From positions 5,622-69,621 of the forward strand of contig JBEBGG010000001.1 of the NCBI GenBank assembly GCA_040081555.1: 64,000 nucleotides of DNA. Direction: 5' to 3'. Positions within the stretch are counted from its first letter, which is position 1. Every line of letters starts with the position of its first letter. Source of the stretch: Vicinamibacterales bacterium (GTDB lineage Bacteria > Acidobacteriota > Vicinamibacteria > Vicinamibacterales > CAVVIG01). The notes under the pieces were generated by a model that saw nothing but the letters and a program-made list of their open reading frames with translations, did not search any database and was not told where the DNA came from. Positions 39,564 to 64,000 of the stretch are shown here, in pieces. Made by a program: the position numbers and the translations under genes.

Positions 39564-41924
39564 ATGGGCGGCCGTCCGGCCGCGTCGGCCGACCGAGGCG
39601 CCGGGTTCGGCCGGCGAAGGGCAACGAGCCGCAATCGGCGGAAAGTCTGGGATACTGGCGCCGTGCTCGCTGTCCAGCCGCCCGGCCGGCCGACGCGCCC
39701 TGATGGCCTGGCCTACTCGACCGGCGACCGCATCGCTGGCGTCGTAGTGATTGCCGTCGTTGGTGTCATGCTCGGGGCCACACGGTGGCTCGGCTCTGGC
39801 AGTCTGGATCTACTGGCTGAGGCCCCCCCCTTTACGTATCTGCTGGTCACAGCCTCGAAGGGTGCGTTGGTCCGCGACATCGTCACCAGCCTGCTGGTGT
39901 TGATCGCGGGGCATGCGCTCCTCAGCTACCGCCTCCGGCAGAGGGCTCCCGGATTCGGATTCGGAGAGATCCGATATCTCTTGCCGCTGGTACTCGCCTC
40001 GTCCGCTCTTGTCGTCACGACCCTGGTTCTCGCGTTCCCGGGCATGTCGTGGTGGGCGCCCCTGGTGTTTGTTGGCGTTGATCTCCATGTGCTCGTGGTC
40101 ATTCTGGCCGTCGCGTTTTGTGCGCAGCGGTTCGACCAGTCGGTCGGTGACCAAGTCTCGGCCGCGATTCGGCGTCGTGTGGAGGGCTGGTGGAATCAGT
40201 GGCCGGCTGTGGATCCGTCGTTCCGCGTTGAAGTCTTCGTTGCTGTTGTCTCGCTGATCGTGGTGGTTCTCTCGTCACCCCTCGTCAGGTTCACGGAGCG
40301 CACACGGGGCGATGAGCCCAAGTATCTTCGCTACGCCGAGAACTGGTGGCAGGGGCACGGCATGGAAATGAGCAATGTCCTCGAGGTGTCGGCCCTGCCG
40401 CGCGACGCACGTCCGCAGATCGGGCGCAACCTGGCGATGTTGGGACCGGCGTTACGGGACGACGTGCGCGCGATGGTGAAGGACGCCATCTATCTCGGGA
40501 ACTACAAGCACTGGAGGCATAAGTTCAACAAGGCGCACTACGCCGGCAACTGGGTCGTGCAGGGCAAAGATGGCGGACTGTATTTGATGCACGGGCCTGG
40601 TCTGTCCATGGTCATCCTGCCGGCCTACCTGATCGACCGCTGGTTGTTCGATCGGGGGCGTCTGATGTTCTCTGACGACCTCTTCACGACCAACCTGACC
40701 ATGCTCGTGATCTATGTGCTGCTGGGGGCAGCCTGTGTCCGCATGCTGACCGCGGCCGGTGTCTCAATGGGCAACGCGGCGCTGGTCACGCTGGCGTGCG
40801 TTCTCTCGTTGCCTGTTCCGGCCTTTGCGTTCCAGTTCTATCCGGAGACGCTGGCCGCGTTGATCGTGTGCCTGTTCATGCCGACGATCCTGGACCCGTC
40901 GCCCTCGTCCTCGCGTGCGGCGCTCCTTGTGGGACTCGGGCTTGGATCGCTTGGTTGGCTCCATGTCAGGTTCCTGGGCGTAGGAGCGGTGTGCCTTGCA
41001 TGGTACGTGTGGGTCCATCGACGAGAATCCCGACGTCTTGCCGCCACATTCGTAGGCTTCGGCGTCGTGATGGCCGCGTTGTGCCTCTACACCTATCACG
41101 TGACCGGAAGCCTCGTCGTGACCGCGATCTTCACCGCCGAAGGGGGCCACGGTACCTTTGCAGCCCACTGGGTCCCTCGCGGACTGATCGGGTATCTATT
41201 CGACCGCGAGAGTGGTCTTCTGCCCCTGGCCCCGATGTACCTGCTGGCGCCGTTTGGGATAGGACTGATGACCCGACGTCCGTTGCCGTTGCTCATGGTG
41301 GGCTCGATCATGTTGGCGCTGCTCATTCCGGCAGCCGGACACGGCTTCGAAAATAATGGTGCATCGCCACTGCGGTTGGTGCTGGCGGTGGTGCCGCTGG
41401 CGACCGTTCCCGTGGCTGAGTTCTTCGCGTGGGCGCGCGGGCGTCGGTTCGCGCTGATTGTGGGTCTTGGCGTTCTGGCGCTCTCGGTGCGGCAGGCGAT
41501 CGCCTACAACTTGGGCAACGACAAGGAGATTCTCAGCACTGTTGCCAGGAGCGTTTCTGGATGGGATCCAACGCTGATGTTTCCCTTGCTTCGCCGGGCA
41601 GAGGGCTGGGGAACCTTTGATGGTGGGGCGCTGGTGGCGTGGGAGGCTGCGGTCGTGCTGCTCATCGTCTCCGGTGTGTTGATGCGGAACTCTGCCGGCA
41701 TCGTGTCGCGTCACCAAGATTGGGTTCCCCCGCATGCGATCGGGGCTGTGGTCCTGGGATTGTTGTCTCTCGGCACCGCGGCGATTCTTGCCGGCGGTCC
41801 CGCTTACGAAACACGTTTGCTCAAGGAACCGCTGGCGGAGTGGCAAGGAGCGCCGGATACTCCACGGCTTCCCGGTGGCTGGCTAACGTTCGGACCGTCG
41901 CCCGCCCGATCGCCCGACGATTAA
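39564..41924 (+). CDS. Large polytopic membrane protein, putative ArnT/PMT_2-like GT-C glycosyltransferase
   Basis: First-loop motif RGDEPKYLRYAENWWQGHG resembles the ArnT DE-x-x-Y-(a/l) loop. More than 12 TM helices. Start uncertain (TTG 39522, ATG 39564, GTG 39663). Confidence 0.6.
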   Translation: MGGRPAASADRGAGFGRRRATSRNRRKVWDTGAVLAVQPPGRPTRPDGLAYSTGDRIAGVVVIAVVGVMLGATRWLGSGSLDLLAEAPPFTYLLVTASKGALVRDIVTSLLVLIAGHALLSYRLRQRAPGFGFGEIRYLLPLVLASSALVVTTLVLAFPGMSWWAPLVFVGVDLHVLVVILAVAFCAQRFDQSVGDQVSAAIRRRVEGWWNQWPAVDPSFRVEVFVAVVSLIVVVLSSPLVRFTERTRGDEPKYLRYAENWWQGHGMEMSNVLEVSALPRDARPQIGRNLAMLGPALRDDVRAMVKDAIYLGNYKHWRHKFNKAHYAGNWVVQGKDGGLYLMHGPGLSMVILPAYLIDRWLFDRGRLMFSDDLFTTNLTMLVIYVLLGAACVRMLTAAGVSMGNAALVTLACVLSLPVPAFAFQFYPETLAALIVCLFMPTILDPSPSSSRAALLVGLGLGSLGWLHVRFLGVGAVCLAWYVWVHRRESRRLAATFVGFGVVMAALCLYTYHVTGSLVVTAIFTAEGGHGTFAAHWVPRGLIGYLFDRESGLLPLAPMYLLAPFGIGLMTRRPLPLLMVGSIMLALLIPAAGHGFENNGASPLRLVLAVVPLATVPVAEFFAWARGRRFALIVGLGVLALSVRQAIAYNLGNDKEILSTVARSVSGWDPTLMFPLLRRAEGWGTFDGGALVAWEAAVVLLIVSGVLMRNSAGIVSRHQDWVPPHAIGAVVLGLLSLGTAAILAGGPAYETRLLKEPLAEWQGAPDTPRLPGGWLTFGPSPARSPDD

Positions 41925-42334
41925 CGTGTGGCTCTGTGTGCGCCTTGCCACTCAAGCGAGGCCTGGATCGCTTGCGCGATACTTGCGCGGGCTTCTTCAG
42001 GCGTGGCGCCCGCGGCGCGGCTTTCCATGTAGTGATGCAACCAGCCGGCGACGGCCGCTTGGTCAATGTGGCCGTCGAGGACCAGCCCGGCCGGTCGAGC
42101 GAGGCCTTCAGGCGCGCGATAGAAGTCGTCAAGCCAGCGAACAACCTCGTTCAGTTCCTCCACACCGAGTGTCTGAACGTTGACGGTCGGTGATGGCGGC
42201 TGGTCTAGCCGCCGGTCGCCCCGAGCGAGCGTGGTGATGGCGTGAACGGCGATGGTGATGACCGTGGCCACGGCAAGGAGAAGGGCGCGGGCTACGAGCG
42301 GCCTGGACATCGTAAGAAGGGGAGGTGCTAGCAT
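41921..42334 (-). CDS. Small signal-anchored hypothetical protein (weak DUF4214-like pattern)
   Basis: ATG at 42334 with AGGAG 6 nt upstream. Hydrophobic N terminus, then FYRAPEGLARP...GWLHHYMES...ASLEW. Confidence 0.5.
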   Translation of the reverse strand: MLAPPLLTMSRPLVARALLLAVATVITIAVHAITTLARGDRRLDQPPSPTVNVQTLGVEELNEVVRWLDDFYRAPEGLARPAGLVLDGHIDQAAVAGWLHHYMESRAAGATPEEARASIAQAIQASLEWQGAHRATR

Positions 42335-42523
42335 GCCATGCTCCTGTTCCCAAGGCCACAGGCCCGCGTCGTCGCGCGGCCACGCCAGGCCGTCCCGCTG
42401 TAGAGAAAACCGGACCAATTGATACCTGCCGACGACAACCCGACACGCCCTCTGCGATTTTTCTAGATAAACTGGCCGCCCGATTGGCATTTCTCCTGCT
42501 CATGCCCGAGGGCAGAGGTAATC

Positions 42524-43228
42524 ATGCGACGACTGACGATAACGATATGTGGTCTGGCGGTGGCCGCCGTGCTGACAGCTCCTGCCGCAAGCTATGCGCA
42601 GCAAAGCCTCAGCTTCTCGCTCGGCGGCTTTGTACCCCAGGGCGAAGACTCGCGCGGCCAGATTGATGGCGGCGACGTACTGGTCAACAACCTCGACTTC
42701 CTGGCTTTCAACATCAAGGACTTCAACGGCGGTTCTGCGGGCGTCGAGTATCTGGTCGCGCTCAATGACTTCGTGGAGGCCGGTCTCGGCGTGGGCACCT
42801 ATCGACGCACCGTGCCAAGCGTCTATGCTGACCTGGTCGCTCAAAATGGCAGTGAGATCGAACAGGACCTGAAGTTGCGCATCGTGCCGTTTACCGCGAC
42901 GGTTCGGTTTCTGCCGGCGGGCCGTGGCGCCGCGGTGCAGCCATACATCGGCGCGGGCGTTGGTGTGCTCAACTGGCGCTACGTGGAGACCGGCGACTGG
43001 GTCGACAGCAATCGGGACATCTATTCCGGAACGTTCAAGGGGGCAGGAACCGCCACCGGGCCGGTCATCCTCGGCGGACTGCGCATCCCGGTTGGCACGT
43101 GGGATATCGGCGGGGAGGTGCGCTGGCAGAAAGCCACGGGCGCCCTCCCAGCGTCTGAGGACTTCTCAGCCGATGCGATCAATCTCGGCGGCGTGACCTA
43201 CTCGGTCACCTTCAACGTGCACTTCTAG
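42524..43228 (+). CDS. Small outer-membrane beta-barrel protein (OmpW/OMP_b-brl-like)
   Basis: Signal peptide ending AASYAQQ, alternating amphipathic strands, and a C-terminal ...TFNVHF with terminal Phe. Confidence 0.78.
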   Translation: MRRLTITICGLAVAAVLTAPAASYAQQSLSFSLGGFVPQGEDSRGQIDGGDVLVNNLDFLAFNIKDFNGGSAGVEYLVALNDFVEAGLGVGTYRRTVPSVYADLVAQNGSEIEQDLKLRIVPFTATVRFLPAGRGAAVQPYIGAGVGVLNWRYVETGDWVDSNRDIYSGTFKGAGTATGPVILGGLRIPVGTWDIGGEVRWQKATGALPASEDFSADAINLGGVTYSVTFNVHF

Positions 43229-43261: not shown

Positions 43262-44770
43262 TCAGTCGACAGGCGAGAGGTGGTGGCCTGGCGCAACCCC
43301 GGCCGGATGGCGCCGGTAGAGCGCCAGGCCAGCCCCGTCGCAGACACGCGAGAACTCCTCGAGAAAGGCCGGCTTTTCCCGGGCGATGCGGGCCAGCATG
43401 TCTCCGCCTTCTGCCTTTTCCTCAATCAGCATCCATCCGGCAAAGGGTGCCGGATGTTGCAGTGCGCTCAGCCAGATGTCCCCGTTGCCTTCGTGCAGAA
43501 AGTCGCGTAGGTCAAATCCAGCGCGCGACAGATCCTGCATGTAGTGCCCGAGCGATCCCATGCTGGCCATGATGCTGGTGCCGTCGTAGTCGCGGGCCAG
43601 GCACGGGGTCACGGTCGCGTCTCGCTCGATGATGTTGGGACGGTCCCACCTGGCCTCTGCAATCATCGGCGCGTTGGCGTCAAGCGGGCGCAGTTCGACA
43701 CAGACGAGCACCAGGAGCGCGACCGCGCCAACCGGCCGGAAGCGTCGCGGCAGAATCGCCACGGCCGCACCCGCACAGGCGGCCTCAATCGCCATCAGCG
43801 GAACCATGTAGCGGATGCGATAGGGGTGGCCGCCGAGAAATGCCACCCACGGAACGGCTGCCGTCGTCAGCAGTGTCAGCGGCAGCCACGAGAGGCCGCG
43901 GTCCTTTCCGCCCCGCCACAGGAGCCATATCATTCCCGTGACGGCGGTGCCGACCAGTAGGGCGCCGCTGAGCGTCCTGGCCCCCCACACGATTTCTGAC
44001 AGCGCTTCGAAGGGCCGTCCTTGCGCGGGGTTCTCCGGCACGAAGAAGTCGTCGGCGAACCAACTGCCAACCACGATCCGGCTGAACATCGTGAAGGCGA
44101 CGATCGCCGCCGCGGGGTAGATGGCAATTCGAACAGTGCGACGCGCTGCCTCGCTGAAGCTCCAGGTACGCCAGGCCAGAATCGCCCCGATGGCCAGTGC
44201 CGAGGCCACTACCGGCCACGCCTCATAACGGGTGAGGCATGCGAGGGCGAGTGTCCATCCCACCGCGCGCGCGCTGGTCGCCTCGCCGGTGGACCACCGC
44301 ATCACCAGCACCACCGAGAGGAGGACGAGGGCGAGCAGCAGCGGCTCCGTCATCGGCGTCGACTGCAGATACAGTACGTTGGGATTGAGCGCGAACACTG
44401 CGGTGGCGGCCACCGCCGTCATTGCTGACTGTGTGAGCCGGTCGGTGATCCAGGCGATGCACGCGCAGGCCATCGCGAAGCTCGCCACCGAGATCGCCAC
44501 GGCGGAGGCGCCGGTGCGGTAGAGCGCGTCGATCTGCACCGGTAGTGCGTTGAGCAGATGCGGCAGCGGCAGCCAGACCGCCCCAATCTGCTGCCAGCCA
44601 GGCGTGATGCGGTCGAAGATTCTGCGGGCGACGATCAGGTGCCCGCGCGCATCGTAGTGGGTGAGGGTGAGTCCGAGGCGGGCGTACTGAAGGGCGATGC
44701 CCGCACCGCCTATCGCCGCCGCGATCGCGACCGTGCGCGTCAACGCGCGCTGCGGCAACGGTATAATCAC
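43262..44770 (-). CDS. Polytopic membrane protein, possible GT-C-fold glycosyltransferase
   Basis: About 11 TM helices, first loop THYDARGHLIVARRIFD, and a C-terminal soluble domain. The family assignment is tentative. GTG start at 44770. Confidence 0.55.
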   Translation of the reverse strand: MIIPLPQRALTRTVAIAAAIGGAGIALQYARLGLTLTHYDARGHLIVARRIFDRITPGWQQIGAVWLPLPHLLNALPVQIDALYRTGASAVAISVASFAMACACIAWITDRLTQSAMTAVAATAVFALNPNVLYLQSTPMTEPLLLALVLLSVVLVMRWSTGEATSARAVGWTLALACLTRYEAWPVVASALAIGAILAWRTWSFSEAARRTVRIAIYPAAAIVAFTMFSRIVVGSWFADDFFVPENPAQGRPFEALSEIVWGARTLSGALLVGTAVTGMIWLLWRGGKDRGLSWLPLTLLTTAAVPWVAFLGGHPYRIRYMVPLMAIEAACAGAAVAILPRRFRPVGAVALLVLVCVELRPLDANAPMIAEARWDRPNIIERDATVTPCLARDYDGTSIMASMGSLGHYMQDLSRAGFDLRDFLHEGNGDIWLSALQHPAPFAGWMLIEEKAEGGDMLARIAREKPAFLEEFSRVCDGAGLALYRRHPAGVAPGHHLSPVD

Positions 44771-44781: not shown

Positions 44782-45381
44782 ATGGGCAGATTCGTTGGTC
44801 GGGTTCAGGCGTTGGCGCTGGCCCTCGGTGGTCTTGGTTTGTTCCTCACGTCCTTCATGGACGCGTTGTTCCTGCCACCGGAGGTCAATGACCTCTTGCT
44901 CGTCTGGATGGTGACGCAGCACAAGTCGCGGATGCTGTACTACGCCGCGAGCGCCACGCTCGGGTCCACGGCGGGATGTCTGGTGCTCTACTACATCGGT
45001 CGACGCGCCGATGGATGGGTGAGGCGTCGATTCAGTGCGGCTCGGGTGGCAAAGGCGATGCAAACGCTGCAGCGCTACGGTCTGCTCGCGGTGCTGATTC
45101 CCTCGTTACTGCCGCCGCCCGCGCCGTTCAAGATCTTCGTGCTCATGTCGGGAGTCGCCGGTATCTCCCCGGCGCGATTTACGGTGGCGATCTTGATCGG
45201 TCGCGGTATTCGCTACTTCGGGCTGGGCACGCTGGCGCTTTACTACGGCGATCAGGCCGTGGACTTCCTGCGTGACAACGGGCGCGGGATCTCTCTGGGG
45301 CTGATCGGATTGATCGTGGTTGGCAGCCTGGCCTACCTGGTGGTCAAGCGCATCCGCCAGCAGAGAACGACGGTAAACTAG
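44782..45381 (+). CDS. DedA/YqaA-family (SNARE-associated) membrane protein
   Basis: FMDALFLPPEVNDLLL...YGLLAVLIPSLLPPPAPFKIF...GRGIRYF pattern. ATG at 44782. Confidence 0.85.
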   Translation: MGRFVGRVQALALALGGLGLFLTSFMDALFLPPEVNDLLLVWMVTQHKSRMLYYAASATLGSTAGCLVLYYIGRRADGWVRRRFSAARVAKAMQTLQRYGLLAVLIPSLLPPPAPFKIFVLMSGVAGISPARFTVAILIGRGIRYFGLGTLALYYGDQAVDFLRDNGRGISLGLIGLIVVGSLAYLVVKRIRQQRTTVN

Positions 45382-45400: not shown

Positions 45401-46375
45401 ATGCACCCGATGCTCGATCTCACTGTCGTCATACCGATCCACAACGAGGCCGCCAGCCTCCTCGACTTGCACCGCGAACTCAATGCGGCGCTTGCACCGT
45501 GGGGGCGCTCCTACGAGATCATCCTCGTCGACGACGGCAGTACGGACGACAGTTTTCCCATTCTCGCGCGCTTGCAGACCGACGACCCGCGCGTGCGGGT
45601 GATTCGTTTTCGCAGAAATTTCGGACAAACGGCGGCGTTTTCGGCGGGCTTCGCGCATGCGCGCGGCCGCCTGATCGTGACGTCTGACGGCGACCTTCAG
45701 AACGACCCCAAAGACATCCCGGCCATGATTCGGAAGCTCGAAGATGAGCAACTCGACATCGTCTGCGGCTGGCGGAAGAATCGCCAAGACGCGTTCATGT
45801 CGCGCCTGTTGCCGTCGATGCTCGCCAACCGCCTGATCTCATGGTCGACCGGCGTTCGCCTGCACGACTACGGGTGTTCGTTAAAGGTGTTTCGATCCGA
45901 GGTGGTGAAGCCACTGCGTCTCTACGGCGAGATGCATCGCTTCATTCCGGCCATCGCCAGCGAACAGGGGGTCGCCATCGCCGAAGCGGTGGTGAATCAT
46001 CGCGCCAGGAAGTACGGCACGTCGAAATACGGCATCTCGAGAACGATTCGCGTGGTGCTGGATCTAATCACCGTGAAGTTCTTGCTGAACTACGCGACCC
46101 GCCCGTTGCAGATCTTTGGTCTCGTGGGTCTGGCGCTGGCCGTACCCGGGATGGCGATTGCCGCCTATCTGGCATGCATTCGGCTGTTTGGGAATCAGTC
46201 GATTGGCAACCGACCGTTGCTGCTCTTCGCGATCCTGCTGGTGTCCACGGGCGTGCAGTTGATCACCATCGGCTTGTTGGCAGAATTGCAGTCGCGCACC
46301 TACCACGAGTCGCAGAGCAAGCCGACCTACGTCATCCGCGAGATCCGCGAGCACGCAGACACGACGGCGGGCTAA
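45401..46375 (+). CDS. GT2 polyprenyl-phosphate glycosyltransferase (ArnC/GtrB/DPM1-like) with two C-terminal TM helices
   Basis: VVIPIHNE, ILVDDGSTDDS, RNFGQTAAFSAG, SDGDLQNDP, GWRKNRQD, then two TM helices. Confidence 0.92.
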   Translation: MHPMLDLTVVIPIHNEAASLLDLHRELNAALAPWGRSYEIILVDDGSTDDSFPILARLQTDDPRVRVIRFRRNFGQTAAFSAGFAHARGRLIVTSDGDLQNDPKDIPAMIRKLEDEQLDIVCGWRKNRQDAFMSRLLPSMLANRLISWSTGVRLHDYGCSLKVFRSEVVKPLRLYGEMHRFIPAIASEQGVAIAEAVVNHRARKYGTSKYGISRTIRVVLDLITVKFLLNYATRPLQIFGLVGLALAVPGMAIAAYLACIRLFGNQSIGNRPLLLFAILLVSTGVQLITIGLLAELQSRTYHESQSKPTYVIREIREHADTTAG

Positions 46376-46380
46376 GTCGC

Positions 46381-53406: not shown

Positions 53407-53519
53407 GGGCTGCCTCCTGCTGGGCGACCTAGCCCATCGACAGGTGCCGTGCATCATCGATACTCTTGGCTCTGGTGAAGCTCTTTCCGCTCGGCCTGTC
53501 GCCGTCTCTGAGCCCGCGT

Positions 53520-54569
53520 ATGCGGCATGGCGGGATCGTGGTGCTGTTGTCGGCACTCTCCGTCACCAAATGCGGCGATTCGCCTGTGACACCCACGCCA
53601 CCGCCGACCGACCCGCCGGCGATTTCGTGTCCCGCTTCGCAGCAGGTCTCAACGCTTCTCGGACAGCCGGTGTCGGTCGTCTATGGGACTCCGACCGTCG
53701 TCGGAGGGACGACCCCGGTGGCCGTCTCGTGTGTTCCGTCGAGCGGATCGACGTTCCCGATCGGCGCTACGTCGGTCACGTGCACGGCCACTGACGCGAA
53801 ACAGCGGGCCTCGTCCTGCTCCCTGACCGTCACCGTGACGGCGCCTGCTCAACTCAGCCTGACGCGATTTGCGGCCTTTGGCGACAGCATCACACTGGGG
53901 GAAGACGGCACGGCCGCGGTGACCGCATCCGTGGGTGGCAAGCTGATCTTTGGCGAGCATATCGTGCTCACCGGGCTCGAGTATCCGTCGGACTTGCAGT
54001 TGGCTCTGCGGTCTCGGTATCCGACGCAAGCCTGTGTGACTTTCGTTCAGAATCTGGGCAGGGGCGGTGAGCAGGTGGGTGTGCCCCCCGGTGATCCAGA
54101 TGGCGGTCTGGCGCGCTTTTCGGCCACGGTTCTTGGAGGTGGTTACCAGGCGGTGCTGATCATGGAGGGAAGTAATGACGCCTACTGGGCGTTCTTCAAT
54201 GGCCCTGGGAATCTACCGCTCGTCACCACCAACCTGCGGACGATGATTACGCAAGCGAAAGCCGCAGGCATCCGTCCGTATCTGGCCACCTTGCCCCCGG
54301 CCCTTCTGCAGTCGGCGTGCATCCCGTCGTGCCGTGGCTATGGCGAAGCGTTTATTCCCGGACTGAACTCGCAGATCCGGAATCTCGCGCAGACTGAGGG
54401 CGTGACGCTGGTCGACGTGAGCCAGGCGTTCGGCGGCGACCTGACGTTGTTGTCGACCGACGGTTTGCACCCCAATGCCGCCGGTTTTCAGCGCATCGCC
54501 GACACGTTCCTGGCAGCGATTCGTTCGACGCTCGAACGCTCAACGCCGGGTCCCTCCGCCTGCAGCTAG
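53520..54569 (+). CDS. Exported HYR-domain + SGNH/GDSL hydrolase
   Basis: HYR-like ISCPASQQV...VSCVPSSGSTFPIGATSVTCTATD...CSLTVTV, then FGDSIT (block I), MEGSNDA (block III) and DGLHPN (block V). The Cys after the hydrophobic N terminus (VTKC) is a non-canonical lipobox. Confidence 0.82.
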   Translation: MRHGGIVVLLSALSVTKCGDSPVTPTPPPTDPPAISCPASQQVSTLLGQPVSVVYGTPTVVGGTTPVAVSCVPSSGSTFPIGATSVTCTATDAKQRASSCSLTVTVTAPAQLSLTRFAAFGDSITLGEDGTAAVTASVGGKLIFGEHIVLTGLEYPSDLQLALRSRYPTQACVTFVQNLGRGGEQVGVPPGDPDGGLARFSATVLGGGYQAVLIMEGSNDAYWAFFNGPGNLPLVTTNLRTMITQAKAAGIRPYLATLPPALLQSACIPSCRGYGEAFIPGLNSQIRNLAQTEGVTLVDVSQAFGGDLTLLSTDGLHPNAAGFQRIADTFLAAIRSTLERSTPGPSACS

Positions 54570-55913: not shown

Positions 55914-57566
55914 TTACGGGAGCACGTTCCCCTCGCGCGCGGGCTCAGTCGAGCCCACGATCTCATAGAGCAGAAAATCAGGGGCCCGGTAGAGCTCCTT
56001 CAGGGCCGGCGCAAATTGGTCGAGGCGGTCGAACAGGGACTGACGCATGGCCGGGTCGTCGTATGCGTCGAGGTGAATCACGGCGTAGCGCACCGAATCG
56101 CGCCGCAGGTCCTGTAGCGAGTCGGCGCTGGGAAAGTCGGCCAGGATGACCGACCGCGCTTCGAATTCCTCAGGGATCGAGTCGCTGTAGGCATCAACGA
56201 GCGGCATCCAGTGCGTCGTCGAATCCATCATGTAACGCGAGCGGCGGAAGCCGAGTCGTCTCGAGTAGATGGGCAACTCGAGCACTGGACCTCGGGGCAT
56301 GGTGGCGAGAACGTGGTAGCCGCTGTGCGGGAGCAGGGCCGGTTCGAATGTGATGCTGATCCACGATTCGGCGAGGGCCGCCGTCAAGAGTACGGCGCCG
56401 ACCACCAGGGGCCGTCGACTTCGGGCGCGCAGGTGTGCGATCCCCAGCGATGCGAGGACGGAGAGCCCGAAGATGACGATCAGACCAAAGCGAACCGGGG
56501 CCCGCATCACTGAAAACAGCGGAATCGTCTGGTAGAGAAGCGGGTACAGGCCCGCATCTGGTCCGAAGGAGGCCCAGGCACCGAGCACGACCATCGCCAG
56601 ATAGACGATGACCGTTTCCCGTGGCCGCCCTTGCGACCGCCAGCCGGAGGCAACGCCAATGGCACCGGCGCCGATCGTGAGAAATCCTGGAAAGAGCACC
56701 TCTTTCCAGTGGCCAAGATAGGGGAGCATCCAGGCGTGAAGCATGTGCCCCGACGCGAGATAGGCCCTCCAATCCGCTGAGTACTGCCGTGCCGCGTCCA
56801 ACGGGCGCTCGTAGCCGTTGTCGCGGAGGACGAAATAGCCAAGGGCTGTAGGTAGGCTTGCCACGACGGCCACGACTGCGCCGGTCGCGAGCATGAGCCA
56901 GAACTGCCGTGTGGTCCAGAGCGAACGGATGGAGGCGACCGCCATCACCGCTGTGCCGATCATCAGCACGACGAAGACCGAATAGTAGGCACAGGCCAGC
57001 GACTGAAATCCCATGGCGAGGCCAAGAACCGCGCCGCGGGCAGCCGTCGGCTGTTGAACGGCGCGATGGAAGGCCAGGAGGCTCAACGGCAGACCGGCGG
57101 TCATCAGGAGTTGGATGTGCAGGAGGTGCGCAAATGCGAACGGGCAGAAACCGAAGATGATCGCGCCGATGATCGACGCCGTGCGATCGCCCGTGAGATG
57201 GCGGCACAAGTAGTACATGCTGCTGCTGCCGAGCACGAACGACGCCAGGACGGCGAAGTTGAGCGCGGCATACGCGCTATGGGTTGCCCAGTAGGCTGGT
57301 ACTGCGATCGCTCCGGCTGCCAGATTCATCTCCGAGTAGGCCAACGCCCACCGATGAGGATGGAAAATATTGGCGTCGAAGAGTTGGCGGGGCTCAGCGA
57401 TCAGTGTGCGTGCGACCCAGGCGACGTTCCACACCGAAAACTGCCCGTCGCCATTTTCCACGTTGTACGCCAGCGTCGACAGACGGAACGAGAGTGGAAA
57501 GAAGATGGCGGCGGTAAGTGCCGAGAAACCCGAGACGACGAGGCCAAGCTCGCGCAGTGGCCTCAT
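55914..57566 (-). CDS. Polytopic membrane protein, possible GT-C-type glycosyltransferase
   Basis: About 12 TM helices, first loop NGDGQFSVWNVAWVART...LFDANIFHP, and a C-terminal soluble domain. The ATG overlaps the upstream methyltransferase stop (ATGA). Family tentative. Confidence 0.55.
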   Translation of the reverse strand: MRPLRELGLVVSGFSALTAAIFFPLSFRLSTLAYNVENGDGQFSVWNVAWVARTLIAEPRQLFDANIFHPHRWALAYSEMNLAAGAIAVPAYWATHSAYAALNFAVLASFVLGSSSMYYLCRHLTGDRTASIIGAIIFGFCPFAFAHLLHIQLLMTAGLPLSLLAFHRAVQQPTAARGAVLGLAMGFQSLACAYYSVFVVLMIGTAVMAVASIRSLWTTRQFWLMLATGAVVAVVASLPTALGYFVLRDNGYERPLDAARQYSADWRAYLASGHMLHAWMLPYLGHWKEVLFPGFLTIGAGAIGVASGWRSQGRPRETVIVYLAMVVLGAWASFGPDAGLYPLLYQTIPLFSVMRAPVRFGLIVIFGLSVLASLGIAHLRARSRRPLVVGAVLLTAALAESWISITFEPALLPHSGYHVLATMPRGPVLELPIYSRRLGFRRSRYMMDSTTHWMPLVDAYSDSIPEEFEARSVILADFPSADSLQDLRRDSVRYAVIHLDAYDDPAMRQSLFDRLDQFAPALKELYRAPDFLLYEIVGSTEPAREGNVLP

Positions 57567-58255
57567 TGCCGTGCCGCGCCTCCCTTGGTGGCTCTGACGT
57601 AGAGATTGGTCCGGAAGCGCAGGGGTAGGCGATCAGGGTTCACGAGGTGAAGCAACGCCAGTCCGAGCGGCCCGAGGTGCTGTCTGACTTTGGCGCGGAA
57701 GAAGTCGTTGACCACCGGGATGTCGAAGGCCTCGATGTCGACGAAGCCGTGACGGGTGAAGCGGGCGATCAGTTCGCCAAGCGAGTGCAACGAGCAATGG
57801 TCGTCGCGCCAGCCCAGACCGCGCCAGCGGATCGTTTCGAAGACGGCATTGGTCCACTTGTTTGGCGTCTGGATCAAATAGGAACCGCCGTCTCTCAGCA
57901 CGCGAGTCACCTCTCGGAGGTGCGCATCAGAGTCTTTGATGTGTTCGAATACGTCGAAGCTCAGGACGGTGTCGAATGACTTGTCGGCGAAGGGCAGCGC
58001 TGTACCTTCGACCCTGGTGATCGAGAGAGGCCCATAGCGGGCGAGAGCCTGTTCGATAAATTCCTGCCGACGCTCCACACCCGCAACCCGGTGTCCGCGT
58101 TCGTGAAGACGGTGCAGCAAGGTGCCCATCCCGGTGCCAATTTCCAGCACATCGGCCGGCGTCTTGAGCACGCCGGTGTCGTCGATGAATCGGAGATTTG
58201 CGTCGAGATTGCCGAACTGTTTCGGGCGGGAGTCGGCGTCGGTGGTGGGCATCAT
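57563..58255 (-). CDS. Class I SAM-dependent methyltransferase
   Basis: VLEIGTGMGTLL motif I and LRDGGSYLIQTPN. The ATG at 58255 overlaps the flippase stop (ATGA). Confidence 0.87.
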   Translation of the reverse strand: MMPTTDADSRPKQFGNLDANLRFIDDTGVLKTPADVLEIGTGMGTLLHRLHERGHRVAGVERRQEFIEQALARYGPLSITRVEGTALPFADKSFDTVLSFDVFEHIKDSDAHLREVTRVLRDGGSYLIQTPNKWTNAVFETIRWRGLGWRDDHCSLHSLGELIARFTRHGFVDIEAFDIPVVNDFFRAKVRQHLGPLGLALLHLVNPDRLPLRFRTNLYVRATKGGAARQ

Positions 58256-59499
58256 GCGCGACTCGGGAGATGTCGCCACAGTTGAGCGACCAGCAGGGCG
58301 ACGGTCACGGCTTCGGCAGCGACGGTGGCTGAGGCCGCACCAGTGATTCCCCAGCGGGGAATCAGCACCAGATTCAACACGACATTGGTGGCGAGCCCAA
58401 TGGCCGTGGTCAGCAGCAGGCGACGGTCGAGATTGGTGGCCACCGCCACGCCGTGCAGGATCCAGGTGCAGAAAATGAAGAGCGCGCCGCCAGAGAGCAC
58501 GCGTAGCGGCGCGACCGCCTCTTCAAACGCGTCACCAAACAAGACATGCACGATCGGTCTGGCGGCCAGCGCCACGGTGCCACCCAGGACGATGCCCAGG
58601 AGCGCGGCTGCCGCGACAGACCGATTCACCATGGCGCGGACTCGACTCCTGTCGTGAACGAACAGATACGACAGACGCGGAGTGACCAGGGCAGCGACGA
58701 TCGAAGGTGGGTAGGTAATGCCTTCGTAGATGCGATACGCCGCGCTGTACCAGCCCGTTTCGACGTTGCTCCGTGTCGCGCCGAGAATCACCGTGTCGAC
58801 GTAGTTGTAGAGATTCAGCGAAATCATGAAGAACCCGAGTGGGAGCGCGGCCGCCTGGAGGTCCTTCCAGATCTGGCGGTCGAAGGTCGGCCTCGCGCCT
58901 CCAGCGTTAGCGGTCAGGCGTCCCAACAATAGCGTGACGCCGGCCCCCATGACGATGCGCGCGACGACAAAGGCAATCCCGAGCGCAACGACGTTATGGT
59001 ACGCGGCCAAGGCGAACACGCCCAGCCCCAACAGCAGGACGCGATCGGAGACGACCACGAGTGCCTCGAGGTCGAACCGATTGAGCCCCTGGAGGTAGCC
59101 GCGTGCGGTCAGAAAGTACGAACGAATGGCCGCGGAGATGCCGAGGGCGTAGCACAGCCGGGCGACGACCAGGTCCGTTCGCAGCAGCGTCGGTACGGTG
59201 GCGATGAGCACCAGCCCACCCGCAATCCACGCCAGTTTCAGGCCGAGGACGTGGCGCAGCAGCGCAGGCGCGCCGCCGTGATCGCGCGCCACCTCACGCA
59301 CCGTGACGTGCGCCAGCCCGATATCCATCACGGTTTCAATCACCGTGGCGATGGCCAACGCGTACGAGAAACGCCCGTAGTCGTCGACGCTGAGGAACCG
59401 GCCCGCCACCAGCAAGAGCACCAAGAGCAGTCCCGCGCTTCCCGCGCTCGCGGTTGCGTAGAGCCCGTTTGCCATGTCGCGCGTTGACAGCGTTCCCAC
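58252..59499 (-). CDS. MOP-superfamily oligosaccharide/polysaccharide flippase (Wzx-like)
   Basis: About 12 TM helices with a Wzx/polysaccharide-biosynthesis-protein-like N terminus. GTG at 59499 lies next to the GT2 stop. An alternative ATG is at 59475. Confidence 0.8.
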   Translation of the reverse strand: MGTLSTRDMANGLYATASAGSAGLLLVLLLVAGRFLSVDDYGRFSYALAIATVIETVMDIGLAHVTVREVARDHGGAPALLRHVLGLKLAWIAGGLVLIATVPTLLRTDLVVARLCYALGISAAIRSYFLTARGYLQGLNRFDLEALVVVSDRVLLLGLGVFALAAYHNVVALGIAFVVARIVMGAGVTLLLGRLTANAGGARPTFDRQIWKDLQAAALPLGFFMISLNLYNYVDTVILGATRSNVETGWYSAAYRIYEGITYPPSIVAALVTPRLSYLFVHDRSRVRAMVNRSVAAAALLGIVLGGTVALAARPIVHVLFGDAFEEAVAPLRVLSGGALFIFCTWILHGVAVATNLDRRLLLTTAIGLATNVVLNLVLIPRWGITGAASATVAAEAVTVALLVAQLWRHLPSRA

Positions 59500-59500
59500 C

Positions 59501-60553
59501 TCAGGTCCGGAGTACGGTCGAACGCAAGAGGCGCCAGTAGCCGTTCAGGAAGGCCTCGTAGGCGTTCTTGCCGATCCTGACGAGCGGATGCGAGGACAGA
59601 TCATCGCGGATGATCAGCGAGCCGCTCTGCAGCAGTGCGGCGTCGTTGCAGGTCCGTATCCGCCGTGTCAGCCGGCGATCGCGCGGCAGTGCCGGCAACA
59701 TCGCGAGCAGCCCCCACACGGCCCTGGCGTAGGTTCGACCGTGGCCCTTGGCCAGCAGCACGGCCAACTGCAGCGGCTCGTGGATGAGCAGGCAGGGGAG
59801 GATCAGCAGCAGCGTGCGCTTCTGATAGTTCTTCAGCATGAAGTGCCAGCGGTTTCTGATCTGAAAGTAGAACAGCCACGTGCCGCGCGGCCGGCTGCGA
59901 TGCTGCACCAGTGCGTCGGGCAGTTCGCGAATCAGGAACCCCGCGAGGCAGATCCGGTGCGTGAAGTCTCCGTCCTCCTTGCCGATGAAGTAGCGCTCGT
60001 CAAAGAGACCGACATCGATGGCGACGGCGCGATCCAGAAGCAGAGCGCAGGTCGGCGCCGCGAGGATGTTGGCCGGCACCGTTCCCCGGTCCGAAAGCTT
60101 TCGATCCAGCCAGGGGTTGATCGCCTCGCAGATGAAATGAATCGCGCCGCCTGCGTACTGGATCACGTCTGGCTGACCGACGTGCACGACGATCGGGCTG
60201 CCGACCGCGATGCGGCGGTCGGCCACCATGGCCGCGTGCAGGCGCTGCGTGGCGTCTGGACTGACCGTCACGTCCGCGTCCATCAGCAACACGAAGGGGG
60301 TGGTCGCCTCGACGATGCCGACATTGCGGCCAGGACTCGGTCCGTCGTTGCGCGTCAATCGCCGCACGCGCACGTCAGGCCAGTGCGTGGCCAGCCATTG
60401 GCCTGTGCCGTCCGTACTGGCGACGTCGACGACCGTGATGGCAGAAGCGCTGCAACCCGCTGCGGCCAGCGAGGCCAGGGTGCCCGGGAGCGATGCCAGG
60501 TTGTTGTGAGAGACGATGGCAACGCCGACGTCTTCGGGGAACGATCCGTTCAT
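59501..60553 (-). CDS. GT2-family glycosyltransferase (soluble, WbbL/rhamnosyltransferase-like)
   Basis: VAIVSHNN, VVDVASTDGT, NDGPSPGRN and LLMDADV (DxD) motifs. Confidence 0.86.
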   Translation of the reverse strand: MNGSFPEDVGVAIVSHNNLASLPGTLASLAAAGCSASAITVVDVASTDGTGQWLATHWPDVRVRRLTRNDGPSPGRNVGIVEATTPFVLLMDADVTVSPDATQRLHAAMVADRRIAVGSPIVVHVGQPDVIQYAGGAIHFICEAINPWLDRKLSDRGTVPANILAAPTCALLLDRAVAIDVGLFDERYFIGKEDGDFTHRICLAGFLIRELPDALVQHRSRPRGTWLFYFQIRNRWHFMLKNYQKRTLLLILPCLLIHEPLQLAVLLAKGHGRTYARAVWGLLAMLPALPRDRRLTRRIRTCNDAALLQSGSLIIRDDLSSHPLVRIGKNAYEAFLNGYWRLLRSTVLRT

Positions 60554-60617: not shown

Positions 60618-60623
60618 CGGTTG

Positions 60624-62525
60624 GTGACCGCACATACGTCGGCAGGGTCAGCGGGCTCGCCGCCATTCGTCAGGCTCGCCGGCGTTCTGCTGGTCACAGT
60701 CCTCATCGCCGCCGCCCTGTCGATTGACGTCCCTCGCACCGCCTACAAGATCAAGAGCGACGAGGCGACGTATGTCGCGATGACGCTCAGCGTGGCGTTT
60801 GATCACGACTTTGCCTACGAGCGGCGGGATCTCGAACGTTTCTGGAAACTCTACGAACAGGGGCCTGAGGGCATTTTCCTGAAGCGGGGCAAGCATCTCG
60901 GCGCGAGCGTGGACGCCCGGCCGCCGTTTGTGCATCTCGAGACCGCGAATGACTCGCGCGGCGACCGGCTGTACTTTGGCAAGTCGATGACCTACGCCGT
61001 TGTGGCGGCGCCGTTGGTCCGACTGTTTGGCCTGAACGGTTTCTATGTGCTCCATGTGCTGCTGCTGGCTCTGGTCGGCGCCTGCGGCTACACGTTTCTC
61101 TCCGCCACCTCTGAACCAGGTCCCGCGCTGGCGTTCACGCTCGCGTTCGTCGCTGCCTCCGCGATGCTGATCTATGGCGTGTTTCTCATGCCGGACCTGC
61201 TGAACGCGGCCTTGGTGTTTGTGGCCTACTTCCTCTGGCTATACAAGGAGTCCCGGCTTCCTCGATGGAGGATCTGCGGCGGAGACATATCCGACCTGTT
61301 GGCGGCGGGTCTCCTGGCCGCGGCGACCTATTCGAAGCCGACCAACGCGCCATTGATCGCGCCGTTGGTCCTCCTGCTGGCATTCCGTCAGCGGTGGCGC
61401 CACGCGTGTGTGACCGGTACCGTGTTTGTCGTCGCGACGGGGCTCCTGTTTGGGCTGAACGCGGCGGTGTCCGGCGAATTCAACTATCAGGGGGGCGATC
61501 GGAAGACGTTCTACGGCTCATTTCCGTTCGAGACCTCGCGCGATGTCTGGGCCGAGAAGACCGATCTCGCCTCCACCAACAACGCCGACACGGAGAACGT
61601 GCTCGAGACCTCGGGACTGGCGAGCCGGTTCCTTCACAACGTCGAGTACTTCATGGTCGGTCGGCACTTCGGTTTTGTGCCGTACTACTTTCCTGGCGTT
61701 GTCGCGCTGCTGGCGTTGGCGCTGTCCCGCCGGCGATTCGAGTCCCATCGGGTGCTCGTGGTCGGTGGTGCGGTGGTGGCGGTGGTGGTGCTCTTGCTGT
61801 TTCTGCCGTACACGTGGAGCGGTGGCGGTGGGCCTCCGGGCAATCGCTACTTTCTAAGCATCTACCCCGTGCTGTTTTTCGTCATCCCGAAGGTCAGCAC
61901 TTGGCACGTGGTGCTGGCGTGGGTGGGCGGCGCGCTCTTCACGGCAAAGATCCTGGTGAGCCCCTTCGCTTTGGCCCGGAACACGTGGGAGATCGCGGAG
62001 CACGGCTTTGCCAGGTATCTGCCCGTCGAGTTGACGATGTCGAACGACTTGCCGTTAATGCTGGCGCAGCCGCCGCGGGGAAGGATCCCGTACCGGGTCG
62101 GCTCCGAGGTGTTTCTGTATTTTCTGGACGGCAATGCCTATCCGCCTGAACCGGTGGACACTCGGGCCGATGGCTCAGTGGTCTACGGCATGTGGGTCAG
62201 TGGTCATGGGCGCGCCGACATCCTCGTCAGGACCGATTACCCAGTGCAGGCGCTGGCGTTTGAAGCGAGTTCCCCTATTCGCACTCGGCTCGTCGTGTCG
62301 GTCGGCGGACCGTCCGTGGCCGTGGCCATTGAAGCGGGGAAGACCGCGGTGTTCACGGTTCCCGTGCGCGGGGTGCCCGGGTGGCACGACTTCAACTACT
62401 TGATGAGCGCTCGTTCCGAGGAGGGCTTTGTCCCTCGACTGATCGACCCTTCGAGCGGGGACTCCAGAAATCTTGGTGTCAACGTCAGGTTTCGACCCAT
62501 TGGCTCCCAGGAGGGCGCGCGCTAG
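60624..62525 (+). CDS. ArnT/PMT_2-like GT-C membrane glycosyltransferase
   Basis: First-loop motif KSDEATYVAMTLSVAFDHDF, more than 10 TM helices and a C-terminal soluble domain. Start set at GTG 60624 (TTG at 60621 also possible). The ORF upstream of this overlaps the divergent GT2 gene. Confidence 0.62.
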   Translation: MTAHTSAGSAGSPPFVRLAGVLLVTVLIAAALSIDVPRTAYKIKSDEATYVAMTLSVAFDHDFAYERRDLERFWKLYEQGPEGIFLKRGKHLGASVDARPPFVHLETANDSRGDRLYFGKSMTYAVVAAPLVRLFGLNGFYVLHVLLLALVGACGYTFLSATSEPGPALAFTLAFVAASAMLIYGVFLMPDLLNAALVFVAYFLWLYKESRLPRWRICGGDISDLLAAGLLAAATYSKPTNAPLIAPLVLLLAFRQRWRHACVTGTVFVVATGLLFGLNAAVSGEFNYQGGDRKTFYGSFPFETSRDVWAEKTDLASTNNADTENVLETSGLASRFLHNVEYFMVGRHFGFVPYYFPGVVALLALALSRRRFESHRVLVVGGAVVAVVVLLLFLPYTWSGGGGPPGNRYFLSIYPVLFFVIPKVSTWHVVLAWVGGALFTAKILVSPFALARNTWEIAEHGFARYLPVELTMSNDLPLMLAQPPRGRIPYRVGSEVFLYFLDGNAYPPEPVDTRADGSVVYGMWVSGHGRADILVRTDYPVQALAFEASSPIRTRLVVSVGGPSVAVAIEAGKTAVFTVPVRGVPGWHDFNYLMSARSEEGFVPRLIDPSSGDSRNLGVNVRFRPIGSQEGAR

Positions 62526-62703: not shown

Positions 62704-63390
62704 ATGATGATCTGTGTTCGAAGAAAGGCCGCCCTCGTGGTGGCTGGGCTTGTGTTCTGTGGCTTGATGGAGCGGGAGGCTCAGGCGCAGGTGGTGCCAG
62801 ACGGGCCATATTCCGCTCAGGTGGACGCTGGCCTGACAGTCGGCAACCACGAGGCCTTGGCGTCCGGATTTGAGCTGGGGTGGTGGCTGAGGAAGGATCT
62901 CAAGATCTTCGCTGAAGCGAACTGGATGCTGAACGTCGCCTCCAGTGATCTGGACGCACGCGCCGGCATCATCGCCGAGGCGATCGGCGGCACGGCAGCG
63001 ATGGAAGCGCATGTGACCATTGTTGACCTGGGCGTCCGCTACGCGTTCCGCGCTCCGTCATTCCTCAGTCTCGACACCCTACAGCCGTTCGTGCTGGCGG
63101 GTGCAGGGATCGCCCGATTCGAGGCTCGTCCGTCATTCACCGTCGGCGGCACGGACGTGACCAGTACCCTGTTTGACACCTACCGCGCCCGGTTGGGTCT
63201 TGACCTCGATGGTTACCTCACCAAGGCGGTGTTTGTGGTCGGTGGCGGCGCCACGATGCCGCTGACGTCCAGATATTTCATCGAGGGCAGCGTCCGGTAC
63301 GGCCACATCTTCCCGAGGAAGGCCGTCATCGCCAACGACACGGCGACCCCAACCACGCGGTTTCAGGCGAGTTTTGGAGCCAGATTTTGA
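62704..63390 (+). CDS. Small outer-membrane beta-barrel protein, paralog of 52759..53406
   Basis: Signal peptide ending EAQAQ and C-terminal ASFGARF. Shared blocks QPFVLAGAGIARF / RPYVLGAVGVARV and TVGGTDVTSTL / ALGGKDVTGAL. Confidence 0.78.
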   Translation: MMICVRRKAALVVAGLVFCGLMEREAQAQVVPDGPYSAQVDAGLTVGNHEALASGFELGWWLRKDLKIFAEANWMLNVASSDLDARAGIIAEAIGGTAAMEAHVTIVDLGVRYAFRAPSFLSLDTLQPFVLAGAGIARFEARPSFTVGGTDVTSTLFDTYRARLGLDLDGYLTKAVFVVGGGATMPLTSRYFIEGSVRYGHIFPRKAVIANDTATPTTRFQASFGARF

Positions 63391-63419
63391 CTCTCCGTTC
63401 CAGTCGAGGGAATTTCGGA

Positions 63420-64000
63420 ATGACCAAATTCGTGAGCAACGCACCACTCTCGTATCTTGTGATGTTGGTGCTGGTGGGGGCCACGGCCTGTACTAGCACG
63501 ACGCAGCCAGATCCAGGATCGTCCACGTCAGTCGCCAAGCCGACGGTCTCCGCGACGACGCCGTCGCTGACATCGCCGCCCTCGGAGGCCCAGCTCTCGT
63601 TTGCGAGCCAGCCAATTACGCTCACTGTCGGCAATGCGGTCTCGACGGCCGAGGGCGCTCCCACCTACATCTTCGAGGTGTCCACCAATCCGGCGTTTTC
63701 GTCGTTTGTTTCGCGAACGACCGGCGTTGCGGAGGGAGCGGGTGGGCGCACGTCCCTGACCCTGAGCAAGCTGGCTGGTGCGACGACATATTACTGGCGC
63801 GCCCTGATTACCGCCGCAGGCGAATCAGGCCCCGTTTCGTCTGTGGCCGTGTTCACAATTGGTCCAGAGGTCGTGCTACAGGCGCCCGAACTGCTCACGC
63901 CGAACGCGGGAAGTAATGTGTCGGACCGCCCCGTTTTGGTGTTGAAGAATGCCCAACGTACCGGCCCGGCCGGTGAGCTGCTCTACGAGGTCGAGGTCTC
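63420..64000 (+). CDS. Probable lipoprotein, paralog of 51479..52678. The 3' end runs off the window.
   Basis: Absent from the ORF track because no stop lies within the window. ATG at 63420, signal peptide plus GATAC, then PTYIFEVSTNPAFSS...TTYYWRA and NAQRTGPAGELLYEVEV, matching the two repeats of the earlier lipoprotein. Confidence 0.7.
   Translation, partial: MTKFVSNAPLSYLVMLVLVGATACTSTTQPDPGSSTSVAKPTVSATTPSLTSPPSEAQLSFASQPITLTVGNAVSTAEGAPTYIFEVSTNPAFSSFVSRTTGVAEGAGGRTSLTLSKLAGATTYYWRALITAAGESGPVSSVAVFTIGPEVVLQAPELLTPNAGSNVSDRPVLVLKNAQRTGPAGELLYEVEV

Follow-up and report, generated by a model that had tools for sequence, protein, structure and literature searches.

A probable envelope glycan cluster with GT-C-type proteins, small outer-membrane barrels and FN3-repeat lipoproteins in a Vicinamibacterales bacterium

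Polytopic proteins with a shared Asp-Glu loop

In a 64-kb stretch of a Vicinamibacterales genome (contig JBEBGG010000001.1, positions 5,622 to 69,621; hereafter the window; G+C content 64%), three genes encode large polytopic proteins that resemble glycosyltransferases of the GT-C fold. Genes for small outer-membrane beta-barrels and for lipoproteins lie close to them, and a sequence-only reading of this DNA had taken the three sets for a recurring module in which each GT-C enzyme is paired with dedicated outer-membrane components. All open reading frames (ORFs) named in that reading were found where it had placed them. The genes of the proposed module, together with a further gene that proved to belong with the lipoprotein and barrel genes, are the following, with the basis of each assignment in brackets:

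39564..41924, plus strand: A1, polytopic GT-C-like protein of 786 aa with the motif RGDEPKYL (homology to A2)
48063..50747, plus strand: A2, GT-C-fold glycosyltransferase of 894 aa with the motif VGDEPHYL (AlphaFold2 model, Foldseek)
60624..62525, plus strand: A3, GT87-like GT-C protein of 633 aa with the motif KSDEATYV following the first transmembrane (TM) helix (PF09594, hhalign)
42524..43228, plus strand: B1, predicted small OmpW-like outer-membrane beta-barrel that has a signal peptide and ends in Phe (orthologues match OmpW)
52759..53406, plus strand: B2, predicted small outer-membrane beta-barrel, conserved partner of L (OMP_b-brl, E = 2.8e-3)
62704..63390, plus strand: B3, predicted small outer-membrane beta-barrel, paralogue of B2 (OMP_b-brl, E = 1.9e-5)
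51425/51467..52678, plus strand: L1, predicted lipoprotein with two FN3 domains and a C-terminal domain of ~150 aa (AlphaFold2, Foldseek)
63420..64000, plus strand: L2, paralogue of L1, cut by the window end (BLASTP to L1)
50802..51410, plus strand: X202, cytoplasmic protein of 202 aa, third member of a triad with L and B (synteny with L and B)

The signature [GS]DE[PA]xY[LV], which had been noted in the three large proteins, had exactly three matches in the six frames of the 64 kb, one in each A protein, while 0.015 were expected (mean of 200 codon shuffles). A1 and A2 were similar by BLASTP (E = 2e-12) and by profile-profile comparison with hhalign (probability 99.9%, E = 4.5e-36, 544 columns). 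A2 and A3 were linked by hhalign with a probability of 98.6% (E = 1.4e-15, 490 columns), in an alignment that starts at the Asp-Glu (DE) motif, D169 of A2 facing D46 of A3, and extends into a common C-terminal beta domain that was also detected by BLASTP (E = 3e-4) and that A1 does not have. The DE motifs of all three proteins were aligned in these profile-profile comparisons. A1, A2 and A3 are, judged by sequence and profile comparison, true homologues. The A1 family is rare, with 28 database matches; the A2 family comprises more than 900 homologues (clusters) of ~895 aa, none of which carries a significant Pfam domain.

The GT-C fold was exposed by structure comparison only. An AlphaFold2 model of A2, built with 26 homologues, reached a mean predicted local distance difference test score (pLDDT) of 84 and a predicted template modelling score (pTM) of 0.78, and displayed what defines the fold, namely a polytopic domain of 7-13 TM helices that can be superimposed on solved GT-Cs. 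In a Foldseek search, this model matched ArnT (5f15; E = 1.8e-6, 520 columns, TM-score on target 0.43), and further matches were EmbA/B, AglB, STT3, ALG12/3/9 and AftB/D, so that the significant membrane-protein matches were GT-C enzymes exclusively. A1 and A3 are tied to the fold through their hhalign matches to A2. Besides the core, A2 has extra N-terminal TM helices and, in its C-terminal third, beta-sandwich domains resembling the carbohydrate-binding modules that are attached to some GT-Cs (PMC11127046).

Within the 26 A2 homologues D169 was invariant and E170 was conserved in at least 90%, with GDEPHYL being the most conserved stretch of the family. The motif had been described as a first-loop signature of all three proteins. 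For A3 this description stands as it is. In the A2 model the DE motif is flanked by helix 142-164 on one side and by loop helices 170-193 on the other, and 4-5 extra N-terminal helices are placed ahead of helix 142-164 and of its A1 counterpart; for A1 and A2, the DE loop is therefore the first loop of the GT-C core and not of the whole protein. Conserved acidic residues in what would be the first extracytoplasmic loop past core TM1, another mark of GT-C enzymes, are present, and the DE loop would be expected to face the periplasm, as its counterparts do.

Known families captured these proteins to a small extent. Neither A1 nor A2 reached the cut-off of any Pfam or NCBIfam family, and PF13231 (PMT_2), which the sequence-only reading had suggested for identification, was absent from A1, A2 and A3 at E-values up to 0.01. 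For GT87, the family of PimE-type polyprenyl-phosphate-mannose-dependent mannosyltransferases, the Pfam model PF09594 was passed narrowly and by A3 only (28.7 bits, cut-off 25), in an alignment to profile positions 7-237 of 237, with no match in A1 or A2. The NCBIfam model NF047440 (LA_3751/LA_3752) gave 56 bits for A2, 34 bits for A3 and no match for A1, and its matches, which included a PMT_2-type protein encoded upstream at 17929, all ranged between 34 and 56 bits, far below the cut-off of 200 bits. In contrast to these families, A1 and A2 form a family of their own, and we regard the A2 family as a candidate new GT-C family outside significant Pfam coverage.

One might object that the A proteins are polytopic proteins of another kind, such as transporters or polymerases, with no more than a resemblance to the GT-C fold. 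The missing family matches of A1 and A2 and the moderate TM-scores of the model would fit this view. We nevertheless hold it to be very improbable: all significant membrane-protein structure matches were GT-C enzymes, the Asp-Glu pair in the loop past core TM1 is invariant, the A2 gene stands in a conserved operon with a donor synthase of the ArnC/GtrB type (see below), and A3, which passes GT87, can be aligned with A2 starting at the motif. The resemblance to ArnT/PMT-type GT-C enzymes was hence corroborated by the Foldseek matches of A2, the invariant D169, the GT87 match of A3 and the aligned motifs. Taken together, the data support the assignment of A1-A3 as GT-C-type glycosyltransferases with a conserved Asp-Glu loop.

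Putative donor-synthase operon, Wzx block and gene order

The A2 gene is the last of a series of genes that start to the right of B1, and A3 is preceded by a block on the opposite strand. The genes surrounding the GT-C genes are:

41921..42490, minus strand: small membrane-anchored protein (one TM helix) whose gene converges on A1 and overlaps the end of A1 (conserved A1 partner)
43262..44770, minus strand: G43, polytopic protein of 502 aa, convergent with B1 (weak PF02366 match, conserved position)
44782..45381, plus strand: DedA/VTT-domain protein, putative polyprenyl-phosphate recycling flippase (PF09335, E = 2.7e-12)
45401..46375, plus strand: ArnC/GtrB-type polyprenyl-phosphate glycosyltransferase of family GT2 with two C-terminal TM helices (PF00535, E = 1e-32)
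46381..48066, plus strand: fusion of a flippase-like LPG_synthase_TM (MprF-type) domain and a class I S-adenosylmethionine (SAM) methyltransferase (PF03706, E = 9e-20; PF08241, E = 6e-22)
53466..54569, plus strand: secreted HYR and SGNH/GDSL esterase (usual direct downstream neighbour of A2 elsewhere)
55914..57566, minus strand: G55, GT-C-like polytopic protein of 550 aa (weak DUF6044 match)
57563..58279, minus strand: SAM methyltransferase (order methyltransferase-Wzx-GT2 conserved)
58252..59499, minus strand: Wzx-type polysaccharide flippase (PF01943, PF13440)
59501..60553, minus strand: cytoplasmic GT2 glycosyltransferase, divergent from A3 (PF00535, E = 2e-19)

The GT2 protein at 45401..46375 matched the structures of ArnC (9hwj, full length, E = 2.8e-62) and GtrB (5ekp, E = 6.5e-31). 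It was rejected as a true ArnC equivalog, since it scored 223 bits with the NCBIfam model against a cut-off of 529. The fusion gene starts a few nucleotides past the GT2 stop codon and its own stop overlaps the start of A2; start and stop codons throughout this operon overlap or almost abut, and the genes are probably co-transcribed. Scans for promoters and terminators found sites no more often than in shuffled sequence and were uninformative on co-transcription. At 741 aa, the longest ORF in this part (45841..48066) runs across part of the GT2 gene and is an artefact. The LPG_synthase_TM/methyltransferase fusion scored 35.6 bits with TIGR00374 ('flippase-like domain'), below the cut-off of 43.2, and was kept between GT2 and A2 in many genomes. 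It may be considered an unusual candidate flippase or modifier for a polyprenyl-phosphate sugar. The operon context with an ArnC/GtrB-type synthase suggests that A2 would use a lipid-phosphate-linked sugar as its donor.

The DedA gene was kept upstream of the GT2 gene across related loci; DedA proteins act as flippases of undecaprenyl phosphate (Und-P), and Und-P is released by pathways of the 4-amino-4-deoxy-L-arabinose (Ara4N) type (PMC12826051). G43 gave a match with PMT (PF02366) at E = 6e-4 and 19.8 bits, below the cut-off of 22.7, and was aligned with G55 by hhalign with a probability of 71%; it is a probable PMT/ArnT-like GT-C. G55 in turn adjoined A3 or A2-type genes in many related loci. 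The usual neighbours of A3 were this second GT-C gene and the divergent GT2-Wzx-methyltransferase block, the GT2 gene being divergent from A3 in loci L002, L005, L006, L014, L015 and L017. With NCBIfam Wzx-like models, the Wzx-type flippase gave weak matches below the cut-offs.

These comparisons rest on 113 related loci from Vicinamibacterales and metagenomes, of which 28 were centred on L homologues, 82 on A2 and 3 on A1. The loci were annotated with tblastn and family hidden Markov models (HMMs), and neighbour counts exclude the window. Because the 'A1' HMM also captured A2-type proteins, A1 and A2 labels were pooled in the metagenome loci; true A1 orthologues were those with the small convergent partner (L111-L113). 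In five loci from long-read contigs of metagenome-assembled genomes (L002, L008, L015, L017 and L019), several genes were split into 2-6 consecutive tblastn pieces in differing frames. This is more likely to stem from frameshifts in the assembly than from pseudogenes, and gene counts at these loci are lowered as a result.

The window does show a barrel gene after each GT-C gene on the same strand, as had been pointed out, but immediate adjacency is confined to A3 and B3, which lie 178 nucleotides apart. A1 and B1 are separated by the opposite-strand gene 41921..42490, and A2 and B2 by the two genes X202 and L1. Among loci with a readable flank, a barrel gene was found downstream of A1/A2-type genes in 0 of 72 cases and downstream of A3-type genes in 1 of 9 (L029). 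Barrels of the B1 type belonged to the G43/DedA/GT2 block instead: they adjoined G43 (minus strand) or DedA in 15 of 15 loci, and an A-type gene lay upstream in none of these. L was the neighbour of B2/B3-type barrels in 13 of 14 loci. The order kept around A2 orthologues was B1, G43 (minus strand) and then DedA-GT2-LPG_synthase_TM/methyltransferase-A2, observed in more than 12 loci (L029-L037, L040, L043, L046 and L055), and SGNH followed directly after A2 in L030, L032, L034-L037, L040 and L055, whereas in the window X202-L1-B2 sits between the two. A1 orthologues were located among housekeeping genes, with gyrase, glyoxalase or kinase genes at their flanks, and the one neighbour that they retained was the small convergent gene. 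A 120-aa homologue of the product of 41921..42490 was encoded convergently to the A1 orthologue on the three unrelated contigs L111, L112 and L113. The true start of 41921..42490 is probably internal, giving about 120-137 aa, and its product matched no Pfam or NCBIfam family.

Adjacency of GT-C and barrel genes is thus unconserved in related genomes, an outcome that the sequence-only reading had itself equated with chance synteny, and the combination of GT-C, barrel and lipoprotein is no conserved unit. Its thrice-repeated module could be upheld in a strict form if each GT-C with its downstream barrel, and a lipoprotein where present, made up a dedicated trans-envelope unit that has been triplicated. 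The pattern occurs three times in the window, an A3-like gene is followed by a barrel gene once more in L029, and B2/B3 and L1/L2 are paralogous pairs. Yet the downstream counts given above, the lack of relationship between B1 and B2/B3, the conserved partnership of B1 with G43/DedA and not with A1, and the convergent gene that splits A1 from B1 speak against such a unit. The same is true of the triad that lies between A2 and SGNH here, genes that are direct neighbours in most other genomes, and of the usual A3 neighbour being G55. We therefore give the strict module hardly any credit. Striking repetition within one genome can stem from dense packing of envelope genes and need not reflect a functional module.

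Barrels, lipoproteins and X202

The three barrels measure ~215-235 aa, and every complete family member examined had a signal peptide and a terminal Phe. The individual proteins stayed below the OMP_b-brl (PF13505) cut-off of 28.7 bits, with 18.3 bits for B2, 25.3 bits for B3 and no match for B1. At the family level, OMP_b-brl was matched by 9 of 10 B2/B3-type proteins (best E = 4.8e-9), and in the B1 family 9 of 11 matched OmpW (PF03922) and 7 of 11 matched OMP_b-brl (best E = 4e-8). The family matches support the prediction of B1, B2 and B3 as small outer-membrane beta-barrels. B2 and B3 shared 27% identity (E = 7e-14), confirming their description as paralogues; B1 and B3 had no similarity, so that B1 represents a different barrel family. 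Searches of PDB sequences gave no significant match to either the B1 or the B2/B3 family. The possibility of B1 being a PagL-like lipid A deacylase was discarded, as a faint match was seen in just 1 of 11 members and no His or Ser was invariant.

The two lipoproteins are paralogues as well (41% identity, E = 1e-35). The AlphaFold2 model of L1 (pLDDT 82) contained two beta-sandwich domains with FN3 tandems as their best PDB matches in Foldseek. The two FN3-like repeats reported before are hence recovered at the level of the model, but not by the Pfam fn3 model, which the L proteins did not match; PhoD_N and Ig_Rha78A_N were matched weakly. A lipobox cysteine, Cys39, followed a hydrophobic signal segment in at least 90% of L sequences. 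With lipobox cysteine and modelled FN3 fold in place, L1 is a predicted FN3-repeat lipoprotein, and it has at least 347 homologues.

The C-terminal domain of L1 (52196..52675, plus strand) is Trp/Gly-rich and highly conserved, with the consensus NQWYFAxIGGxWYGGAGEW...CK and two conserved Cys. It had no relative in Pfam, NCBIfam or the PDB, and the Foldseek search with whole L1 was dominated by FN3 matches, which left this domain unclassified. We counted ~339 clusters of the domain at 50% identity in several phyla, and it usually stood at the C-terminus of proteins with Ig, FN3, TIG, FG-GAP or polysaccharide-lyase(-14)-like segments. The conserved pair of lipoprotein and barrel thus carries an uncharacterised domain that is spread over several phyla. 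The domain also occurred in lipoproteins of Myxococcales, Solibacteraceae and Ilumatobacteraceae, joined there to other N-terminal domains and Pro-rich linkers.

X202 matched no Pfam or NCBIfam family. It has the conserved motif RGRPxKFGRPxxVVxxTLPED, which is AT-hook-like and is followed by a possible DNA-binding segment, and its gene adjoined the L/B pair, upstream or downstream, in ~10 loci. It may be a regulator of the lipoprotein/barrel pair, judging from this motif and position. In seven loci (L001, L003, L004, L009, L011, L012 and L013) the triad X202-L-B stood by itself, no GT-C or glycan gene being present within 10 kb. In L001 it was located beside a lactate permease gene, in a region otherwise syntenic with the upstream, housekeeping part of the window. 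The triad has many paralogues, which are often embedded between ArnC-like GT2, GT-C and SGNH esterase genes.

The probable envelope glycan cluster

Vicinamibacterales are abundant in soil; to our knowledge, nothing is known about the glycans of their envelopes, and a literature search on glycosyltransferases and the outer membrane in Vicinamibacter found nothing relevant. Three-component periplasmic glycosylation systems, such as GtrA/GtrB/GtrC for O-antigen glucosylation and the Citrobacter GT136 system (PMC11127046), have a synthase of the GtrB/ArnC family, a flippase and a GT-C encoded together. The A2 operon likewise holds a GtrB/ArnC-family synthase, a protein with a flippase-like domain and a GT-C in one conserved operon, with the LPG_synthase_TM protein or DedA as the presumptive flippase. 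A GT-C with extra periplasmic beta-sandwich domains resembling carbohydrate-binding modules, as in A2, is known from such systems, too (PMC11127046). Differences lie in the candidate flippase, which is an LPG_synthase_TM-like/SAM-methyltransferase fusion and neither of the GtrA/SMR nor of the MATE type, and in the additional DedA and several GT-C genes of the locus.

A second relative is the Arn pathway of lipid A modification (ArnC/ArnE-F/ArnT), to which the Lgm system of Bordetella and the Flm system of Francisella are related. The best structure match of the GT2 protein was ArnC and that of A2 was ArnT, and a DedA protein would fit the recycling of Und-P released in the periplasm (PMC12826051). 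On the other hand, the GT2 protein is far from the ArnC equivalog cut-off, genes for ArnA, ArnB and ArnD were not noted in the cluster, and A2, at 894 aa, differs from ArnT by additional helices at the N-terminus and beta domains at the C-terminus. In the protein O-mannosylation of actinobacteria, the GT2 synthase Ppm1 and the GT-C Pmt act on secreted proteins and lipoproteins. Parallels to that system are the GT2 synthase, the PMT-like G43 (below cut-off) and nearby lipoproteins with Ser/Thr/Pro-rich linkers; unlike the actinobacteria, the organism studied here is diderm, and a glycosylation of L is hypothetical.

The locus is best explained as a three-component or Wzx-type envelope glycosylation cluster made of known kinds of parts. 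We consider it quite probable that the region from 42.5 to 64 kb as a whole is an envelope glycan assembly and decoration cluster typical of Vicinamibacterales, and that the pattern of GT-C, barrel and lipoprotein genes is a by-product of the packing of independent units. A first unit would be a three-component periplasmic glycosylation system. In this scheme, the ArnC/GtrB-type GT2 would charge polyprenyl phosphate with a sugar at the cytoplasmic face, the lipid-linked sugar would be flipped with the LPG_synthase_TM-like domain as the candidate flippase, and the sugar might be modified by the methyltransferase that is fused to this domain. Its transfer to a periplasmic acceptor would then fall to A2 and to G43, which is encoded divergently, by means of the Asp-Glu loop after the first core TM helix. 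As in the Ara4N pathway, Und-P would be freed at the outer face, from where DedA would return it (PMC12826051), and the SGNH esterase might add or remove acyl groups. The acceptor could be lipopolysaccharide/lipid A, another envelope glycan, or a protein. With its ArnC-like synthase, DedA and flippase-like/methyltransferase fusion, the A2 operon offers a clean setting for the study of Und-P-sugar flipping and recycling in Acidobacteriota.

A second unit would consist of the Wzx block (GT2, Wzx and methyltransferase), which together with A3 and G55 may build or decorate a unit linked to undecaprenyl diphosphate. The third would be formed by X202, the FN3 lipoprotein L and a barrel of the 8-stranded type (B2/B3), an autonomous triad that moves through the genome as a unit and, in this genome, would have come to lie between A2 and SGNH and again after A3. 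A1 and its small convergent partner would represent a fourth, unrelated insertion beside B1.

Several points weigh against this reading. Homology is the ground for any statement on the sugar, on the acceptor, and on how the DE loop is oriented in the membrane; in comparison with solved GT-Cs, the A2 model reached moderate TM-scores (0.43-0.46 on target), and sequence and profile searches of A2 and A3 against PDB sequences gave nothing significant. The loci were picked via L or A2 and are a non-random sample with many short contigs, and L029 provides one additional case of a GT-C gene followed by a barrel gene. Above all, an L gene was present in about 15-17 of the 82 A2-centred loci, often adjoining GT2, A2 or SGNH, and ~11 of 18 full-length L loci lay inside a glycan cluster. 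By our own estimate, which assumes a genome of ~5 Mb and few L copies, the chance of an L gene within 10 kb of A2 is ~1%. L is thus far commoner near A2, GT2 and SGNH than expected by chance, and to speak of independent units may understate a functional link.

This enrichment makes a functional link at the level of the cluster plausible, with L as an acceptor or as a protein that binds or processes the glycan. It was therefore weighed whether the FN3 lipoproteins, the barrels, or both are substrates or partners of the periplasmic glycosylation machinery. L might be O-glycosylated by a GT-C with a polyprenyl-phosphate sugar, as known from Ppm1/Pmt of actinobacteria, or it might bind or process an outer-membrane glycan. 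The neighbours of L agree with such a role: L adjoined an ArnC-like GT2 in L010, L014, L016, L017, L035, L067, L078 and L086, A2-type genes in L038, L039, L054, L067, L078, L079, L086 and L107, and SGNH in L002, L015, L016, L018, L019, L030 and L034. The share of full-length L loci inside a cluster, the weak PMT match of G43, and the co-occurrence of the L C-terminal domain with Ig/FN3/TIG, polysaccharide-lyase-14 and FG-GAP segments, fitting an extracytoplasmic role with glycans, point in the same direction. Against this stand the seven loci in which X202-L-B has no glycan gene within reach. In addition, no glycosylation sequon and no known carbohydrate-binding or catalytic family was identified in L, the enrichment estimate hinges on the assumed copy number per genome, and envelope genes commonly cluster without direct interaction. 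On balance, we regard such a substrate or partner role as unlikely, although it clearly deserves more credit than the strict module. The earlier idea that barrels and lipoproteins are connected with glycosylation thus lost its pairing with individual GT-Cs through the gene order and keeps a looser form in the enrichment of the L family in the wider glycan cluster.

A still bolder and somewhat more doubtful proposal is that the triad constitutes an outer-membrane device not described so far, linked to the pathway of polyprenyl-phosphate sugars in Vicinamibacterales, with L handling the glycan or being its acceptor. The C-terminal domain of L might then serve to bind or process the glycan that the GT-Cs produce, or L might be a glycosylated acceptor that the barrel anchors or exposes at the surface. 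The reading of the region as a glycan cluster assembled from independent units remains the one that we prefer.

The window harbours further genes of this functional range upstream of the cluster. A PMT_2-type GT-C is encoded at 17929..19785 (plus strand; PF13231, 32.6 bits against a cut-off of 26.1), and a polytopic protein of 669 aa with a Wzy_C/O-antigen-ligase domain at 32899..34908 (plus strand), which brings the number of GT-C/Wzy-like proteins in the 64-kb window to at least seven. Between an inositol-phosphatase-like gene and A1 lies an ORF of 178 aa with a weak EF-hand match (38877..39413, minus strand). In L029 and L030, B1 came directly after the inositol-phosphatase gene, a difference that makes the segment from the EF-hand ORF through A1 to the small convergent gene look like an insertion in the lineage studied here. 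Finally, a single ORF of 847 aa (25955..28498, plus strand) combines CcmF (Cytochrom_C_asm and CcmF_C) with a C-terminal CcmH, and its product is a fused cytochrome c maturation protein.

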